64,000 nucleotides of DNA from a virus. Lineage: Duplodnaviria; Caudoviricetes. Every line of letters begins with the position of its first letter. The stretch's first letter is position 1. The notes under the pieces are model-generated. The model did not search any database, was not told where the DNA came from, and saw only the letters and a program-made list of their open reading frames with translations. Location of the stretch: the IMG/VR virus record IMGVR_UViG_3300032116_000002; one strand, 5' to 3'. The translations under genes were made by a program, and so were the position numbers. Of this stretch, positions 4,779-42,232 are shown one piece after another.

Positions 4779-5158
4779 TAAAATCAATCTATCCAGGCAG
4801 TGTTGATATAACCGTTAGCGGCGGTTCGTCTGTAACGCCTTATATCAACCCAACTTATTCTGGTTCAGGCATGATAAAATATGATCCAGCATCACATAGC
4901 TTTCAAGTTAATGATGGTCATAGTTGGGTTACTATACCTAATAATGATGTAACTATTGACTTAAGTTATGAATCTAAAAAAGCACTAGATTGGGCTAGAA
5001 GAAAATACCGTGAGGAACAAGAGTTAGAAGAACTTGCTAAAACTAATCCAGCTATCAATGATTTAGTAAATCAAATTAAAGAAAAGCAAGATCAACTTAA
5101 AATGGTTAAAGCACTAATAAAAAAGAATGATGAATCAGTAGAAATGCAAGCACCCTAA
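4775..5158 (+). CDS. hypothetical protein with C-terminal coiled coil
   Basis: ORF coupled to both neighbours. Confidence 0.6.
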   Translation: MIKSIYPGSVDITVSGGSSVTPYINPTYSGSGMIKYDPASHSFQVNDGHSWVTIPNNDVTIDLSYESKKALDWARRKYREEQELEELAKTNPAINDLVNQIKEKQDQLKMVKALIKKNDESVEMQAP

Positions 5159-6708
5159 TGGAAAAAGATAATCTAACACAAAAGCATAATAGTGACTGGG
5201 CATTGTTCTTACCCGCACTCAGTACATTTTATATTACTGGGTTAGGTAAACAACGCAAAGGTGAAAATTATTTTCCAAGTGAGCGTATACCACAAGGCAT
5301 TCCCGATCTTGAAGCATTAAATTTCCTCAACAGTCAACAAGCACTATTCCCATACAAGTGGGCATTATACAGTGCAGGTCACGCTGAACTAGATCCTAAT
5401 AAGCAAGGCAATAGTGAAAGCATTGTATACGAACGTGAGCAAGGTACTTTTTTATTAGGTGATAGTGGTGGATTTCAAATTCTAAAAGGTCAATGGCCTG
5501 CCGATTGGAAAGATCCTAATTGTCCAAAAGCAATGAAAAAGCGTCAACAAGTATTGCAATGGATGGATACATACATGGACTATGGTATGGTTCTTGATAT
5601 CCCATCACAGTCATTGACAACTTATCATTTAAAAGATAAGAACGGTAATAGTGTTCATGGTATCAAAACAATTGAAGATGCAGTTAAAGCCACACACATC
5701 AATAACAAATATTTTATTGAAAATAGAACGGGTAAATGCAAATTCTTAAACGTGTTGCAAGGTCGTAATCATACACAAAGCGATGAATGGTATCAAGAGA
5801 TGAAGGATTACTGTGATCCTAAAAAATATCCTGATACACATTTCAATGGTTGGGCATTTGGAGGTCAGACAAAAATTGATATCAGTCTTTTTCTTAAGCG
5901 TTTGGTACATATTATCCATGATGATTTACTCCAGCCTGGAGTTCACGATTGGATTCATTGCCTTGGCACATCTATACTAGAATGGTCGTTGTTGTTCAGC
6001 GACACACAAAGGGCATTGCGTAAATATGTAAACCCAAATGTTACTATCAGTTTTGATTGTGCTAGCCCATTCTTTAGTGCAGCAAAAGGCTTGGCTTACT
6101 TCAATAATACATTTGAACACAACAGTAAATGGTCATATCAAATGGAAAAAACTGCTGAAGCCAAAAAATACGCAACAGACACAAGACCGTTTATGGATGC
6201 CGTGCTTAACGATGGTATCCATAAAGTATTTACTAACAGTCCGATAACTGCTAGAATGACAATTAATGATTTGTGTTATAGAGGTGTAGGATTTATTGGA
6301 CAACATGGTAAAGAAACAAAAACTAGTTGGGACACATTAAGTTACACACTAATACAGGGTCATAATGTATATCAGCATATGGTAGCAGTACAAGAAGCAA
6401 ATAGAAAATATGACAATAACATTATACCTAGTATGTTAATGCACGAACAGTTTGATAGGGTATTATTCAAAGACGTAGTTGATGAAATTATTTCTCAACC
6501 AACAAGAGAAAGTGCATTGAATAAGATTGAACAATACAATTGGTTCTGGAATCAATTTAAAAGCGGCAGTCAAGGTTTTAGTGGTAAAAAGGCAATTAAT
6601 TCATTGACTAATTTTAATAAATTTTTTCAAGAGGCATCAAGTAGTGATGAAGTTACGGATGAAGAAAATTACGAAGATGATCTTGAAATCCTAAATATAG
6701 AGGAGTAA
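5158..6708 (+). CDS. dpdA: TGT-family guanine transglycosylase (DpdA-like)
   Basis: TGT barrel motifs in order: LGDSGGFQ, MVLDIP, VLQG, GWAFGG, HCLG, SFDCAS; lies in a cluster with folE/queD/queE. DNA versus tRNA substrate is inferred. Confidence 0.75.
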   Translation: MEKDNLTQKHNSDWALFLPALSTFYITGLGKQRKGENYFPSERIPQGIPDLEALNFLNSQQALFPYKWALYSAGHAELDPNKQGNSESIVYEREQGTFLLGDSGGFQILKGQWPADWKDPNCPKAMKKRQQVLQWMDTYMDYGMVLDIPSQSLTTYHLKDKNGNSVHGIKTIEDAVKATHINNKYFIENRTGKCKFLNVLQGRNHTQSDEWYQEMKDYCDPKKYPDTHFNGWAFGGQTKIDISLFLKRLVHIIHDDLLQPGVHDWIHCLGTSILEWSLLFSDTQRALRKYVNPNVTISFDCASPFFSAAKGLAYFNNTFEHNSKWSYQMEKTAEAKKYATDTRPFMDAVLNDGIHKVFTNSPITARMTINDLCYRGVGFIGQHGKETKTSWDTLSYTLIQGHNVYQHMVAVQEANRKYDNNIIPSMLMHEQFDRVLFKDVVDEIISQPTRESALNKIEQYNWFWNQFKSGSQGFSGKKAINSLTNFNKFFQEASSSDEVTDEENYEDDLEILNIEE

Positions 6709-6709
6709 T

Positions 6710-6916
6710 ATGTATAAAGCCAAGATTCAGCATTTGGAAGAAATGCATAGAGTTCTAAACAAACAAATTGACGATATGGAGAGAAATCATCCTCACGTCG
6801 AAGTAGATAAGCTTACTGAAATGAAAAAACAAAAGCTTAAAATTAAAGATGAAATTAGTAGATTAAATCGTTTACAATGGGAACATGATCATGAGCGAGT
6901 TGACCTTGGAGAATAA
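6710..6916 (+). CDS. DUF465/YdcH-like coiled-coil protein
   Basis: LEEMHRVLNKQI...LTEMKKQKLKIKDEI pattern. Confidence 0.7.
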   Translation: MYKAKIQHLEEMHRVLNKQIDDMERNHPHVEVDKLTEMKKQKLKIKDEISRLNRLQWEHDHERVDLGE

Positions 6917-6917
6917 T

Positions 6918-7370
6918 TTGGATGAGCAAAGAATGCAGGCAATGGCAGATACAAGATTTAGAATAACACAGGCTGCAAAAAGAATGATACATGTAACCTT
7001 TCAGAAAGAAGGTGTGCATAAGTTTCCAGGAGCAGTTAATCCAGAATTCGCAACAGGTGACGAATATGACGTAAGTTTTTTAGCACACCCGCATCGTCAT
7101 ATCTTTCATTTTAGAGTTGGCATTGAAGTATTTCACAATGACCGCGAAATAGAATTTATTCAGTTCAAGCGTTGGATAGAAAACCTTTATGGTAATGGAA
7201 CACTAGAACTGGATAATAAAAGCTGTGAAATGATTAGCGATAGTTTGTACGAAGCTATAGCTAGTCGTTATCCAGAGCGTGACATTCATATCAGTGTAAG
7301 CGAGGACAATGAGAATGGATCCACAATTTTTTATAACACAAGTAGACCAATTCAACTACTAAAAATCTAA
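6918..7370 (+). CDS. QueD-like T-fold protein (second, divergent paralog)
   Basis: HPHRHIFH metal motif, EIEFIQFKR, SCEMIS, C-terminal VSEDNENG; probable TTG start at 6918 after GGAG. Confidence 0.7.
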   Translation: MDEQRMQAMADTRFRITQAAKRMIHVTFQKEGVHKFPGAVNPEFATGDEYDVSFLAHPHRHIFHFRVGIEVFHNDREIEFIQFKRWIENLYGNGTLELDNKSCEMISDSLYEAIASRYPERDIHISVSEDNENGSTIFYNTSRPIQLLKI

Positions 7371-10471: not shown

Positions 10472-11152
10472 ATGTCATACAACAAAACTAAAACCGACCC
10501 CGAATTGGGAAAACAAGTTCACCAGTATCTAGTAGAAATGGGAGTTGAAACTCCTATGAAGCCTAATACTTGGGAACGTAAAGAAAAAATTGAGGCTATC
10601 GAAGGATACTTTCATCAGATTATGAAGACCTTAGGGTTAGATATGAGTGATGATAGTTTAATTGACACACCCACAAGAGTTGCAAAAATGTACGTCAATG
10701 AAATCTTTTGGGGTCTTGATTATGAGGCATTTCCAAAATGCACTACGGTTGACAACAAAATGAAGTATAATGAAATGGTAGTTGAGCGTAATGTCAACGT
10801 ACAAAGTAATTGTGAACATCATTTTGTAGTTATCGATGGTCTTGCTACAGTTGCATATGTACCTAAACAAAAAGTACTAGGGCTAAGTAAAATTAATCGC
10901 ATTGTAGAATATTTTAGTAAACGTCCACAAATTCAAGAAAGATTGACTGAGCAGATTTTTCACACGTTGTGTTTTATCCTTGAAACAAATGATGTTGCTG
11001 TTATGATTGATGCACAACATTATTGTGTTAAGTCCAGAGGAGTAGAGGATACAGGTAGTTCCACAGTTACAGTTCGTTTAGGTGGTGGATTCAAGTCTGA
11101 TCCAGCAGCAAGAAATGAATTCTTGAGTATTGCAAGGATGGGTAAATCATGA
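10472..11152 (+). CDS. folE: GTP cyclohydrolase I
   Basis: DTPTRVAKMY, SNCEHHF, GLSKINRIV, RPQIQERLT, HYCVKSRG. Confidence 0.97.
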   Translation: MSYNKTKTDPELGKQVHQYLVEMGVETPMKPNTWERKEKIEAIEGYFHQIMKTLGLDMSDDSLIDTPTRVAKMYVNEIFWGLDYEAFPKCTTVDNKMKYNEMVVERNVNVQSNCEHHFVVIDGLATVAYVPKQKVLGLSKINRIVEYFSKRPQIQERLTEQIFHTLCFILETNDVAVMIDAQHYCVKSRGVEDTGSSTVTVRLGGGFKSDPAARNEFLSIARMGKS

Positions 11153-11295: not shown

Positions 11296-11755
11296 TAAGA
11301 TTAAAGACCTTAAAGCTAAAGGATTAAAAATAGGTATAACGTTTAGTACGTTTGATTTGTGTCATGCAGGACATGTTGCAATGCTTGCAGAAGCAAAAAA
11401 TCACTGTGATTATTTGATTGCTGGATTACAAACAGACCCAACTATCGATAGACCTGATACCAAAAATAAACCAGTACAAAGTATTGTCGAACGACAAATA
11501 CAATTGTCATCATGTAGGTACGTTGATGAAGTAGTTGTTTATCAAACTGAACAAGATTTGGTAGATATTCTTTTGACATTACCAATAGATGTGCGTATAC
11601 TAGGTGTTGAGTATCAAGGTAAAGAATTCAGTGGTGATGAAGCTTGTCGTAAAAAAGGTATTGAATTAGTTTTTAATAGCCGTGACCATAGTTTCAGTTC
11701 TAGTAATTTGCGTAAGCGTGTTGCAGAAGCACAAGAACAAAAACAAAAATGGTAA
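11285..11755 (+). CDS. cytidylyltransferase (TagD-like)
   Basis: TFSTFDLCHAGH (HxGH), YVDEV, RDHSFSSS. Confidence 0.88.
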   Translation: MIFNKIKDLKAKGLKIGITFSTFDLCHAGHVAMLAEAKNHCDYLIAGLQTDPTIDRPDTKNKPVQSIVERQIQLSSCRYVDEVVVYQTEQDLVDILLTLPIDVRILGVEYQGKEFSGDEACRKKGIELVFNSRDHSFSSSNLRKRVAEAQEQKQKW

Positions 11756-11758
11756 ATA

Positions 11759-11959
11759 ATGAAGTTAAAGCCTTGCCCCTTCTGCGGTAATGACTTAAAT
11801 CAACAAGATTTTTGGCATGAAACAGTTTATCCATATAATAGACAAAAAACTATTTGGTCAGTAAACTGTGCTGAAGAAGTGGGAGGATGTTCTGCACAAA
11901 TGTTTGCAGATACAGTAGAAGAAGTAATAAATAAATGGAACAAACGACAGCGGTCTTAG
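11759..11959 (+). CDS. Lar-like (restriction alleviation) zinc-ribbon protein
   Basis: LKPCPFCG...VNC-x5-C...EEVINKWNKR pattern. Confidence 0.6.
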   Translation: MKLKPCPFCGNDLNQQDFWHETVYPYNRQKTIWSVNCAEEVGGCSAQMFADTVEEVINKWNKRQRS

Positions 11960-12008
11960 GCATTCATCCCGCTATATTAAATTCTGCATGTCTTGCTAAT
12001 AGAGGAGA
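11949..12008 (+). promoter_or_regulatory. candidate cis-regulatory RNA (preQ1-I-like H-type pseudoknot) upstream of queD
   Basis: P1 AGCGG/CCGCT, P2 AGGCAT/ATGTCT, alternative pairing GTCTT with the GAGAC of the RBS. Confidence 0.45.
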
Positions 12009-12012
12009 CAAA

Positions 12013-12528
12013 ATGTTTTACTTAAACGAAGTTAATCCACCAAGAACTTACAAATATACAAGCACTAAAGAATATCACGATAGTTTTCCATGCGCATATC
12101 GTCAGTGGCGTGCTGACAGTCATTGCAATCTAATACATGGTTACAGTTTTTCAATGAAGTTTTATTTTGGTACCGATCATTTGGATGTCCGTAATTGGGC
12201 TGCTGATTACGGTGGTCTAAAAGAATTAAAAGCAATACTAGAAGATCAATTTGACCATACACTATTAGTAGCCGAAGATGATCCTGAACTAGAAACATTC
12301 AAATTACTACAAGAAAAGAAAATGGCTAAATTGACCATACTACCACGTTTAGGTTGTGAGGGTCTAGCCGATATGCTTTACAAATATGTGAATGGCGTGT
12401 ATATTCCCGATATGTGGGGACCAGGTGAAAGTGAAAGGCTTTGGTGTTATCGTGTAGAGGTTCGTGAAACACAAAGTAATATGGCTTTTAGAGAAGGTCA
12501 TCGTGAATGGAATGAGGATTTACTATGA
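12013..12528 (+). CDS. queD: 6-carboxy-5,6,7,8-tetrahydropterin synthase
   Basis: CAYRQWRADSHCNLIHGY, DYGGLK, FDHTLL, GCEGLA, VEVRET; start at 12013 after GAGGAG. Confidence 0.88.
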   Translation: MFYLNEVNPPRTYKYTSTKEYHDSFPCAYRQWRADSHCNLIHGYSFSMKFYFGTDHLDVRNWAADYGGLKELKAILEDQFDHTLLVAEDDPELETFKLLQEKKMAKLTILPRLGCEGLADMLYKYVNGVYIPDMWGPGESERLWCYRVEVRETQSNMAFREGHREWNEDLL

Positions 12529-16260: not shown

Positions 16261-17124
16261 ATGAGTAAAATTAAAGTAGCTGAATTGTTTTACAGCATAC
16301 AAGGAGAAGGAAGATTTATGGGCGTGCCTTCTATTTTCTTACGCACATTTGGTTGCAATTTTAAATGTGCAGGTTTCGGTATGCCAAAGGGTGAAGTAAG
16401 TCTAGAAGCCAATAATATTGCTTACGCACAATCAAAGAGTCATAACACTCTTTATAAATCGTATCAAGATTTGCCATTGGTAAATACAGGATGTGATAGT
16501 TACGCAAGTTGGCATTCTGGATTCAAAGATTTAAGCCAATCATATGATATTGAAACACTTGCTGAATCTATTGTTGGTTTATTACCTGATAATAAATGGC
16601 GCGACATACATTTAGTTATAACTGGTGGTGAACCTTTATTAGGTTGGCAAAAAAGTTATCCCGATCTGTTAAGTCACGATAAACTTAAAAAGCTTAAAGA
16701 TATTACTTTTGAAACAAATGGTACTCAAGAGTTATCTAAAGATTTTAGAAAATATCTTGAGAAATGGACACACAAGCATGGTTATCATAATCTTACATTT
16801 AGTGTAAGTCCTAAATTAAGCGTAAGCGGGGAGAAACGTGAAGATGCAATTAGACCTGACGTTGTGTGTGAGTATGAAGATTTAGGTCATACTTATTTGA
16901 AGTTTGTCGTAGCAACAAAAGACGATGTTGATGAAGCATTAGAGGTTATTGATTTATATAAGAAAGAAGGATTTGATGGTCACGTATATTTGATGCCTGT
17001 TGGTGGTGTCGAAGATGTGTATAAACTTAATAACAGAACAGTTGCAGAACTTGCTATGAAACATGGTCTAAGATATAGCGATAGACTACAAGTACCACTT
17101 TTTAAAAATGAATGGGGAACATAA
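16261..17124 (+). CDS. queE: 7-carboxy-7-deazaguanine synthase (radical SAM)
   Basis: ELFYSIQGEG, FLRTFGCNFKC...GCDS, VITGGEPLL, FETNGT, SVSPK. Confidence 0.93.
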   Translation: MSKIKVAELFYSIQGEGRFMGVPSIFLRTFGCNFKCAGFGMPKGEVSLEANNIAYAQSKSHNTLYKSYQDLPLVNTGCDSYASWHSGFKDLSQSYDIETLAESIVGLLPDNKWRDIHLVITGGEPLLGWQKSYPDLLSHDKLKKLKDITFETNGTQELSKDFRKYLEKWTHKHGYHNLTFSVSPKLSVSGEKREDAIRPDVVCEYEDLGHTYLKFVVATKDDVDEALEVIDLYKKEGFDGHVYLMPVGGVEDVYKLNNRTVAELAMKHGLRYSDRLQVPLFKNEWGT

Positions 17125-38604: not shown

Positions 38605-38669
38605 AGTTGTAGATGCCGAATTCGGGTCTACAACTATGTCATTCGCTTATTATAAGGAGACTAAACATG
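38605..38669 (+). promoter_or_regulatory. candidate ROSE-type RNA thermometer
   Basis: 5' hairpin AGTTGTAGA/TCTACAACT; 3' hairpin TCGCTT pairs with AAGGA leaving a bulged G. Confidence 0.6.
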
Positions 38670-39110
38670 ACTAATCAAATATCTATTCGTACCTTGGATA
38701 TTCCAAGTATTCACAGATTTGGAATCGGATTCGATTCTATGCTTTATGATCTAGCCCGTCTAGCATCAGCAAATGCTTCAAACTATCCCCCATACAATTT
38801 AGTTAAAACCGATGAAAATAGTTTTGCTATTGAATTGGCTGTTGCTGGATTTAAAGAAGGGGAAATTGATGTATCAGTAGAAAAAAATGTATTGACCATT
38901 AAAGGTTCTAAGAAAGACAGTATACCTGATAACTTTGAGTATCTACATAGAGGTATCAGTCAACGTAATTTTGAACGTACTTTCCCACTAGCAGAGCATA
39001 TTGAAGTTACGGGTGCTTTGGTTCGTGACGGTATGTTAATCATTGATTTGTTCCGTTTGGTTCCCGAATCAGACAAGCCCAAATCTATTGCTATTTCATA
39101 CCTTAAGTAA
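38667..39110 (+). CDS. small heat-shock protein Hsp20 (IbpA-like)
   Basis: NYPPYNL, IELAVAGF, YLHRGISQRNFERTF, DGMLII; start 38667 after AAGGAG. Confidence 0.95.
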   Translation: MTNQISIRTLDIPSIHRFGIGFDSMLYDLARLASANASNYPPYNLVKTDENSFAIELAVAGFKEGEIDVSVEKNVLTIKGSKKDSIPDNFEYLHRGISQRNFERTFPLAEHIEVTGALVRDGMLIIDLFRLVPESDKPKSIAISYLK

Positions 39111-39163: not shown

Positions 39164-39469
39164 ATGTCAAATCCAGAAACAAATATTACAATTAAACCTA
39201 ATTTAAAGATTGTAGAACCACCATTGTACAAGATCATCTATCTAAATGATGATTTCACTTCAATGGAATTCGTAGTGGACAGCCTAATAGAGCATTTTAA
39301 CTATAATGCTGATACTGCTACTAATATCACTAAAAACATCCATGAAGACGGCTCCGCAGTCGTTGCTGTACTACCCTACGAAATAGCAGAACAAAAGGGT
39401 ATAGAAGTTACAGTAGAAGCAAGATCACAAGGTTTCCCATTACAAGTTAAGATTGAACAGGAGGCTTAA
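39164..39469 (+). CDS. clpS: Clp protease adaptor ClpS
   Basis: PPLYKIIYLNDDFTSMEFVV, IHEDGSAVV, YEIAEQK, FPL. Confidence 0.93.
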   Translation: MSNPETNITIKPNLKIVEPPLYKIIYLNDDFTSMEFVVDSLIEHFNYNADTATNITKNIHEDGSAVVAVLPYEIAEQKGIEVTVEARSQGFPLQVKIEQEA

Positions 39470-40687: not shown

Positions 40688-42232
40688 ATGCGTGACTTAT
40701 TAGACAAACTACAATTTATAGCAGAAAGCACTGGACTATCGAATAGAAAGCCAGGCGACATTTTTAAAAATTCTGCTGGCCAAACCATAACTTTTTCAAA
40801 TATAGCATTCTTTCCTGAAGAGGGAGGAAAGTTAGATACCACACAACTACGTGATGTACTAGCGTCAGTTACGAATCAACTTGGAAATATAGAATGGCAA
40901 AATGCCGCAGCAAGAGCAGGAGGGTTTGCTATCGCAAGTTTTGATTCCGAAGCAGGACCTGTTCATTTTGGTTTCTTTTTACAAGAAGTAAAACCAAATC
41001 CAAAAGACAATAAGATTAAAAATGTAATCGGTGATTATAAGTATGCAGGAGCCGCAGCAGCAAAGACACAAGCTAAAATGACTCCACAAGATTTGTTGAC
41101 TAACAAATTAAACCTAACTGCACGTGACATTATGTTACAACTCAGTGAAACTTTAGGAACAGACAGCCCATTATATTACATTGCACACCAAGTTGCCACT
41201 GGAGCACCTTTCCCTATTGAAGTAGAAGCATCCGAACAATTAAGTTTTACAGGTTTCAGAGATTATTTTTGTGAAATACTGCAACCAATAGCATTACAAA
41301 ACGGAAATTACGAAGGTAATGCAAGTGATGCAGCACAGAAATTTTTTGGTGAACCAAGCTTTGCAAACACTTCTATAAACTTTGATGATAGTAAGAATGC
41401 AGGATTAAGTGATAGTGTACTTGAATTACCAGATGGTAGATATGTTAAAATAAGTAGCAAAGGCGAAAAGGGTGCTGAGGCTAGTGTTAAGAATTTAGAA
41501 GATGAAGTTAGTAATGTACAGGATCCTAAATTACTTAGAAAGTATAATGATGTAATTGAACTCATTAGAGAAATGAGACAAGCCGGACAAGCGGGAGCTC
41601 CATTAATCTTAGGTATTCGTTATGGTATAATAGATGAAACGGATGCAGAATTAATAAAATCTTTAAAAGGGTTCAAACCAATTCCTTTAAAATCAATAAA
41701 AGATGTAACCATGCATGGGGCAAGAGTTTCAAAAAATCTAATCAAATTAGCATCAGAAAGAAAAACAAAAAGACCAGAAGCAGTTGCACTTTATTATCAT
41801 TTAATTGCAGCAGTTGCACACAAGGTAGCAGAAAAAGTAAATGAAGAAACTAATTTTAGCCAAGCAGCTAGTGAAATATTAAACAATGGTGCATTAGTAC
41901 AAGTATATACCAATGCAACACAATCAGGTAACAAATGGATACTTGGGGCGTTTAACACTGTATACCCAAGTAAAGCAGTTACAGGTGTTGTATTAAGTGC
42001 AGGTAAAAATTATAGCAGTACTGAAATTAAAGGTAACTTTACATTCAAGATTTTACGAAATGGTGCTAAGGCTAGTATGCTTGATGATACAGAAATCGAA
42101 ACCGGTAAAGAAGAAACGCCTCCCGAATTGGCTACGGTAGCACCAGATATAACTGAACCAAAAGTTATTAAGCAATCAAACATTCAACCAAAAGCCGATA
42201 TCGGCAGATCAAAACGACCAAAGTTAAGATAA
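40688..42232 (+). CDS. hypothetical protein, possible head-packaged protein
   Basis: 514 aa; N-terminus MRDLLDKLQFIAES; TAAATA at 40676. Confidence 0.6.
   Translation: MRDLLDKLQFIAESTGLSNRKPGDIFKNSAGQTITFSNIAFFPEEGGKLDTTQLRDVLASVTNQLGNIEWQNAAARAGGFAIASFDSEAGPVHFGFFLQEVKPNPKDNKIKNVIGDYKYAGAAAAKTQAKMTPQDLLTNKLNLTARDIMLQLSETLGTDSPLYYIAHQVATGAPFPIEVEASEQLSFTGFRDYFCEILQPIALQNGNYEGNASDAAQKFFGEPSFANTSINFDDSKNAGLSDSVLELPDGRYVKISSKGEKGAEASVKNLEDEVSNVQDPKLLRKYNDVIELIREMRQAGQAGAPLILGIRYGIIDETDAELIKSLKGFKPIPLKSIKDVTMHGARVSKNLIKLASERKTKRPEAVALYYHLIAAVAHKVAEKVNEETNFSQAASEILNNGALVQVYTNATQSGNKWILGAFNTVYPSKAVTGVVLSAGKNYSSTEIKGNFTFKILRNGAKASMLDDTEIETGKEETPPELATVAPDITEPKVIKQSNIQPKADIGRSKRPKLR

Follow-up and report, generated by a model that had tools for sequence, protein, structure and literature searches.

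The leader of a queD-like phage gene carries a conserved cis-regulatory pseudoknot that competes with a helix sequestering the ribosome binding site (RBS), a conclusion that we hold with high confidence. We identified this element in a 64,000-nt stretch of phage DNA (hereafter the window), which belongs to a 117.8-kb IMG/VR phage record with an estimated completeness of 33% and which was detected in freshwater metagenomes from at least 16 studies. On balance, we favor the reading that positions 11949-11993 are the aptamer of a new, phage-specific riboswitch candidate in queD/PTPS leaders that would respond to a small molecule by turning translation ON. A broader proposal, to which we assign an even chance of being correct, is that this ~45-nt pseudoknot represents the first widespread phage-only riboswitch class, which would sense a pterin or 7-deazapurine intermediate (e.g., H2NTP, CPH4, CDG, or 7-deazaguanine) and, in jumbo and T4-like phages of freshwater and marine habitats, switch ON the committed, QueD-catalyzed step of a 7-deazaguanine DNA-modification pathway that lacks QueC.

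The regulated gene (12013..12528, + strand, start ATG at 12013) encodes a QueD-like PTPS of 171 amino acids that matches Pfam PF01242 (2.1e-15) and PHROG 2389 (4e-36). All elements of the pseudoknot lie on the + strand of its leader, and the column numbers given below refer to A1, an alignment of 132 distinct instances from IMG/VR phage contigs in which sixteen positions are invariant. The 5' strand of P1, AGCGG (11949..11953, columns 4-8), includes the invariant G11952 and G11953 and pairs with the 3' strand, CCGCU (11969..11973, columns 29-33), as borne out by covariation and by the bait tests described below. L1, UCUU (11954..11957), contains the invariant C11955 and U11956 and is 3 to 9 nt long in relatives. 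The 5' strand of P2 (11958..11966) consists of A-GGCAU (11958-63), U11964, which takes part in an invariant U.C mismatch, and an extension formed by C11965 and A11966. It is followed by L2 (11967..11968), which comprises U11967 and an unpaired C11968 located at the P1/P2 junction; this C is invariant in all 132 sequences of A1 and in 148 sequences of a second alignment, A2, and at least 70% of sequences have U before it, the remainder having C or A.

Directly 3' of the P1 3' strand, the window reads AUAUUAAA. The A-rich L3, AUAUUAAAUUC (11974..11984), carries invariant A11976, A11979, A11981, U11983, and C11984; across the family, this loop has a length of 10-11 nt, three invariant A residues, and an invariant UC at its end. 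The 3' strand of P2 (11985..11993) is made up of U11985, G11986, the mismatch partner C11987, AUGUC (11988-92), and U11993, such that the pairing of AGGCAU (11958-63) with AUGUCU (11988-93) includes one G.U. Five nucleotides of this strand are held in common with the anti-RBS strand UGUCUU (11989..11994), which pairs with GAGACA (12005-10). The Shine-Dalgarno (SD) sequence GAGGAG (12002-07) and the sequestered GAGACA together span 12002..12010 within the RBS, GAGGAGAC, where GAGAC (12005-09) is complementary to GUCUU (11990-94). P1, P2, and the anti-RBS pairing had all been proposed in a preliminary description of this DNA, and each is present in the window sequence. That description had also cautioned that P1 overlaps the end of the upstream ORF; the ORF in question is Lar-like (11759-11959; Pfam PF14354), and its TAG stop codon was confirmed at 11957-59, inside L1.

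When the window leader was folded alone (91 nt), its minimum free energy (MFE) was -11.7 kcal/mol compared with a shuffle mean of -13.2 kcal/mol (z = +0.56), which is no better than chance. In a fold begun at P1, the MFE structure combined P1 with the anti-RBS helix UGUCUU/GAGACA at -11.2 kcal/mol, with the anti-RBS helix of the window leader being worth -5.0 kcal/mol. Since the single-sequence fold is at chance level, the case for the pseudoknot rests on comparative data.

A QueD protein search of IMG/VR returned more than 593 relatives, 80 of which (86-94% identical) were kept, and the leaders of these relatives shared a strikingly conserved motif. The instance finder used for A1 demanded P1 pairing, which renders the 100% P1 figure of this alignment circular, so selection-free counts and two bait tests were used instead. 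For the counts, 213 distinct cores were collected with no complementarity rule applied; among these unique cores, the third pair of P1 (C11951-G11971 in the window) was U-A in 81, A-U in 71, and C-G in 45, with zero mismatches. The rare P1 variants ACC/GGU and UGC/GCA were altered on both sides at pairs 2 and 1. The two bait scans used the 3' half of the motif alone and yielded at least 120 matches each. CCCACU plus the tail only was accompanied by an NGUGG 5' strand in ~108 of the 120 matches listed, and CCCYCU plus the tail only was accompanied by AGAGG in 90 of the 93 unique sequences among the matches listed.

P2 pairing was never a criterion for picking sequences, and all five of the P2 pairs in A1 (columns 18-22/48-52) vary on both sides. 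The helix is extended by the invariant U.C mismatch, then by an invariant C24-G46 pair, and then by A25-U45, which is A-U in 128 of the A1 sequences, G-C in 4, and unpaired in 0. A2, which was produced with MAFFT, was gapped inside P2, and counts were taken from A3, a CM alignment of 101 instances. Covariation in homologous leaders, which the preliminary description had named as a check on its proposal, was found in both A1 and A3. In A1, 93.8% of cells were paired compared with 78.8% after shuffling, and the covariation score was 0.434 compared with 0.155 for shuffled alignments (0 of 500 reached the observed score) and 0.108 for the best slid control. In A3, the corresponding values were 94.0% compared with 78.5% of cells paired and a score of 0.415 compared with 0.127 (0 of 500) and 0.089. 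A fixed-pattern search of the window for the motif found nothing, because L3 in the window carries one extra base (U11977) that most relatives lack, with metagenome contigs of relatives being one base shorter at this point. Taken together, these data indicate that the pseudoknot is conserved with compensatory changes far beyond chance.

The expression platform was analyzed in 138 distinct leaders by folding the region from the tail of the motif to the start codon. Either the SD or the AUG was paired in the MFE structure of 138 of 138 platforms, and the P2 3' strand contributed 2 nt or more to the sequestering helix in 98.6% of them compared with 54% when the spacer was shuffled, a control value that is itself high. 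The mean energy of the platforms was -8.7 kcal/mol compared with -6.4 kcal/mol for shuffled spacers. The P2 3' strand finds its complement in the SD or AUG, 10-40 nt further downstream; the helix targets the SD in the window and the start codon in most relatives. Fifty-seven distinct versions of this helix were found, among them CCUAUG/CAUAGG (on the SD), GUCAUC/GAUGGC (on the start codon), GUCUUC/GGAGAC, and CCUC/GAGG. Helices of the start-codon class have a 6-bp core with at least 97% pairing, and one pair changes from C-G to U-A in 12 sequences. Covariation of the sequestering helix is modest overall because the start codon or the SD makes up its 3' strand.

Since the P2 3' strand is shared with the RBS-sequestering helix, the pseudoknot and sequestration are mutually exclusive. 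The two alternative folds proposed earlier for the window were recovered there, and the varied platforms have one common, mutually exclusive pairing logic, which, like a conserved and covarying structure in the leader of a metabolic gene, is expected of riboswitches in general. Because of this mutual exclusion, anything that stabilizes the pseudoknot should turn translation ON, a direction that we infer from the pairing logic.

We built a covariance model, R1, from A1 and used it to map the distribution of the motif. R1 detected one strong copy in the window (56 bits) and one copy in the phage's own record. Each of five jumbo genomes (270-519 kb) contained one R1 match of 50-65 bits, with the next best match scoring 17.7 bits or less, and 101 copies were found across 884 kb from 100 loci, with locus L105 alone containing two. 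A further R1 match in the window at 40757-40786 (+ strand, 20 bits) consisted of the tail UUUAAAAAUUCUGC only, had no P1, lay inside an ORF (40688-42232), and was set aside as probably due to chance. The two copies in L105 (3150-3620, - strand) lie in tandem, ~220 nt from each other. Downstream of the first, which is of the AGCGG type, there is only a short remnant ORF that starts MANQP and resembles a QueD N-terminus, and the second, of the AGUGG type, is followed by the intact PTPS gene. This arrangement looks like a recombination scar.

The proposed link to queD held for every copy of the motif, each being tied to a PF01242 PTPS leader. All copies precede PF01242 PTPS genes, which belong to at least five divergent subfamilies; in three exceptions, a 55-aa ORF or a SAM methyltransferase gene sits between the motif and queD. 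At L029 (2080-3513), a SAM-dependent methyltransferase gene (PF13847) is inserted at this point and would fall under the same leader. Most of the PTPS proteins behind the motif (12013-12528 in the window and the downstream ORFs of L081-L326) carry CxxxHGY where canonical QueD has CxxxHGH, and HGH is retained by the MTWIIDK subfamily only. Judging from this signature, the chemistry of the motif-linked CxxxHGY enzymes may differ from that of QueD.

In most loci, the motif is promoter-proximal and has no upstream ORF. Canonical sigma-70 promoters (TTGACA-N17-TATAAT) end 7-21 nt upstream of P1 in many loci, which puts the motif at the extreme 5' end of the mRNA there. A contig from an RNA library that derives from a related phage spans the motif and starts ~10 nt before P1, although contigs cannot show transcription or transcript ends. 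Among 185,579 prokaryotic species genomes scanned, three true copies were found, all of them on short MAG contigs, together with one false match. Comparison of the motif with 50,697 GenBank phage records by blastn gave chance-level matches only. The nearest QueD genes among cultured phages (Acidovorax phage ACP17, Xanthomonas phage X1, and Synechococcus phage BUCT-ZZ01) overlap or abut their upstream ORF, a CM scan of ACP17 and X1 detected no motif, and the motif was found in none of the cultured phages checked. The motif is thus almost confined to phage contigs, where it is found in hundreds of uncultured phages.

The neighborhood of queD in the window also encodes FolE (10472-11152) and a QueE-like radical SAM enzyme (16261-17124; PHROG 2076), and neither QueC nor a Pfam TGT match was found there. 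We checked ten large motif-bearing phage records, four of which were rated 100% complete, for pathway genes. With the window protein as the query, a QueE-like match was present in 10 of 10 records (strong in nine and weak in one). A convincing QueC was found in 0 of 10, the best score being a marginal 24.8 bits that was reached only when summed with frame neighbors, so these phages would not make preQ0 or preQ1 themselves. A Pfam TGT match was found in 0 of the first five records. A FolE-QueD-QueE set without QueC has been linked to CDG-derived modifications such as dDG (Cui et al. 2023), and the predicted gene set of the motif-bearing phages fits this scheme.

Several other features of the window were recorded. 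A 516-aa ORF (5158-6708, + strand) is conserved at 37-55% identity in 5 of 5 motif-bearing jumbo phages tested, and these were the first five of the records above; previously read as DpdA/TGT-like, it gave zero Pfam, PHROG, NCBIfam, or PDB-sequence matches. The ORF at 6885-7370 (+ strand), previously read as a T-fold/DpdL-like QueD paralogue, has no Pfam PTPS match, its sole match being PHROG 17812 (unknown function, 1.9e-32). An RNA thermometer of the ROSE_3 family (Rfam RF02523) was detected at 38607-38672 (+ strand) with 53.7 bits compared with a gathering score of 43. It adjoins, on the 5' side, a phage-encoded HSP20 small heat-shock gene (PF00011, 3.9e-18), with a TATAAT-like box upstream and a gene for a ClpS adaptor (PF02617) following. 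The ORFs at this site span 38668-39110 and 39164-39469.

The comparative data reveal a switching structure and are silent on what flips it, so we considered whether the pseudoknot could be an operator bound by a conserved protein of phage or host origin, in the style of T4 gene 32, RegA, or ribosomal protein S1 or S15, or by the ribosome, with no small molecule involved. T4 and E. coli provide established cases of mRNA pseudoknots bound by proteins, and the phage in the window is T4-like in its replication genes, encoding a T4-type family B DNA polymerase (PHROG 262). The motif resembles the T4 gene 32 mRNA pseudoknot in being a 5'-leader pseudoknot of a T4-like phage with a predicted role in translation control. 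In contrast, the product of gene 32 itself binds the T4 element, which has no link to a metabolic enzyme, whereas the RNA described here stays constant while the downstream protein differs between subfamilies. Because the invariant bases are fixed over at least five PTPS subfamilies and in phages of 170-519 kb, a binding protein would have to be equally universal; no candidate regulator gene accompanies the motif in the loci that we read. Moreover, the conserved bases gather where the helices meet, next to an unpaired C, much like those of small-molecule pockets. We thus consider a protein operator unlikely.

A putative small-molecule pocket at this junction raises the question of how the motif relates to preQ1-I riboswitches (RF00522), which comprise types I-III with examples such as B. 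subtilis queC, T. tengcongensis, C. antarcticum, and E. coli (PMC11625349). These are H-type pseudoknots in which the ligand is stacked between coaxial P1 and P2 helices; a UC or AC precedes the P1 3' strand, its C pairing with the ligand as the specificity base, an A-rich L3 lies in the P1 minor groove, types I and III have UU atop P1, and SD bases lie within P2 such that ligand binding turns the gene off (PMC11625349). The phage motif shares the small H-type build, with a 5-bp P1 closed by G-C and a P2 in which the loop pairs with the 3' tail, as well as an unpaired C directly 5' of the P1 3' strand, mostly with U before it. In composition, its A-rich L3 after P1 also resembles that of preQ1-I, and the predicted role of the motif is the translational control of a queuosine/7-deazaguanine pathway gene. 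By analogy, C11968 is a candidate ligand-pairing base.

The differences are nevertheless considerable. The first L1 base of the phage motif is variable (U, C, or A) and is followed by an invariant CU rather than being part of a U or UU; P2 is 7-8 bp, twice as long, and contains a U.C mismatch that is fixed; L2 measures just 2 nt; and L3 has an invariant UC at its end. An anti-RBS strand, rather than the SD, forms the 3' side of P2, so that the predicted logic is ON, and the motif sits before queD only and almost only in phage contigs. In addition, Rfam searches at the gathering score detected no preQ1-I, II, or III match in the whole window, and at E<=10 there was no match to RF00522, RF01054, or RF02680 in 11700-12300, in ten diverse relatives, or in a motif-only search of 55 nt. 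Taking the gathering and permissive searches of the window, the relatives, and the bare motif together, no relevant Rfam family was found and hence no ligand assignment could be drawn from Rfam.

A diverged but true preQ1-I riboswitch that senses host-derived preQ1 or preQ0 would account for the H-type build, the G-C closing pair, the UC as in type I, the A-rich L3, and the que gene context. It is difficult to reconcile with the failure to match any of the three Rfam models, the unconserved first L1 base, the doubled P2 with its fixed mismatch, and ON rather than OFF wiring; furthermore, the ten large motif-bearing records, having no convincing QueC, point to phages with no preQ0 of their own. 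We regard this explanation as quite improbable. Accordingly, the preQ1-I-like character claimed in the preliminary description stands with respect to the H-type pseudoknot, the closing G-C, and the C, and is partly borne out for the A-rich L3, with three invariant A residues in a loop of 10-11 nt, whereas the conserved first L1 U, the OFF wiring of preQ1 switches, and Rfam membership are not shared. The same division applies to its claim of a U after the P1 5' strand and a C before the P1 3' strand, since the C is invariant while the U is replaced by C or A in some relatives. We do not file the phage motif as a preQ1-I member and read it, by analogy, as an element that would work like one, with a junction pocket for a guanine-faced heterocycle.

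The pockets of THF-II and THF-I RNAs read the guanine-like face of a pterin. The phage motif resembles these RNAs in being a regulatory RNA on a pterin-pathway gene; however, they are built as a hairpin with internal loops or as a three-way junction, act as OFF switches, and are bacterial, and no Rfam match to them was found here. THF-II (the folE motif) and THF-I are known as cis-regulatory RNAs on pterin-pathway genes (PMC6800512). In size and topology, the motif is also comparable to the SAM-II/SAM-V, guanidine-III, and fluoride riboswitches, whose ligand is bound at a helix junction or triplex, although it has no sequence or CM similarity to them and occurs in another gene context. No description of such a queD-leader pseudoknot was found in the literature searched.

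We also considered a ligand-independent device, i.e., a kinetic or thermal, mRNA-stabilizing, or standby element whose folds depend on temperature, transcription speed, or upstream translation. The folds are near in energy in the window (-10.5 kcal/mol for P1 plus the sequestering helix compared with -3.4 kcal/mol for P2 alone), and a ribosome terminating at 11957-59 would open P1 there. However, an upstream ORF is missing from most loci, where the motif is promoter-proximal, and sixteen invariant unpaired or junction bases exceed the needs of a simple thermometer, making such a device very improbable. A signal at the DNA level, either a repressor operator or a sigma-70 promoter with its -35 TTTACA in CCCGCTTTACAAA and the -10 TATAAT of some leaders, is effectively excluded: although TGCTATAAT occurs 17-18 bp downstream of TTTACA in one clade, this TATAAT lies in the variable loop of a hairpin with a covarying stem (CCUAUG/CAUAGG compared with CCUAUA/UAUAGG) and is found neither in the other clades nor in the window. 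In addition, canonical promoters are located upstream of the motif, of which each genome carries one copy, and interleaved compensatory pairing has no rationale at the DNA level. A sigma-70 promoter would have conserved -35 and -10 hexamers spaced by 17+/-1 bp in every copy; the TTTACA...TATAAT promoter reading was rejected on the grounds that its -10 is found in one clade only and inside the covarying hairpin loop.

The small-molecule ON riboswitch that we favor would operate as follows. The RNA folds into a 5-bp P1, a P2 of 5-6 variable pairs extended by the U.C mismatch and the C-G and A-U pairs, a 2-nt junction (N followed by the invariant C), and L3, with the invariant bases clustered at the P1/P2 junction like those of a ligand pocket of the preQ1-I type. 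When the effector is absent, the RBS-sequestering helix would form and queD would go untranslated, whereas an effector that locks the pseudoknot would leave the RBS free, such that QueD, the putative first committed enzyme of the phage 7-deazaguanine pathway, would be made. An ON switch on this enzyme fits feed-forward sensing of its substrate or early intermediates (H2NTP, CPH4) or of a 7-deazapurine or guanine pool. An end-product sensor would not usually exert ON control over a first committed step, so the identity of the effector is a guess; we infer that it is a small molecule, and the putative ligand is probably a pterin (H2NTP or CPH4) or a 7-deazapurine (CDG or 7-deazaguanine).

Riboswitches have rarely been found in phages, with few examples described, and the existence of undiscovered classes has been suggested (McCown et al. 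2017, PMC5473149). If our reading is true, the element would be such a class, with hundreds of representatives, an aptamer of ~45 nt, and a logic opposite to that of preQ1 switches, and it would constitute a natural ON switch of very small size that responds to a guanine-like ligand. It would also mean that phages use RNA sensors to meter their own DNA-hypermodification pathway, and it would point to a metabolite that gates 7-deazaguanine synthesis during infection.
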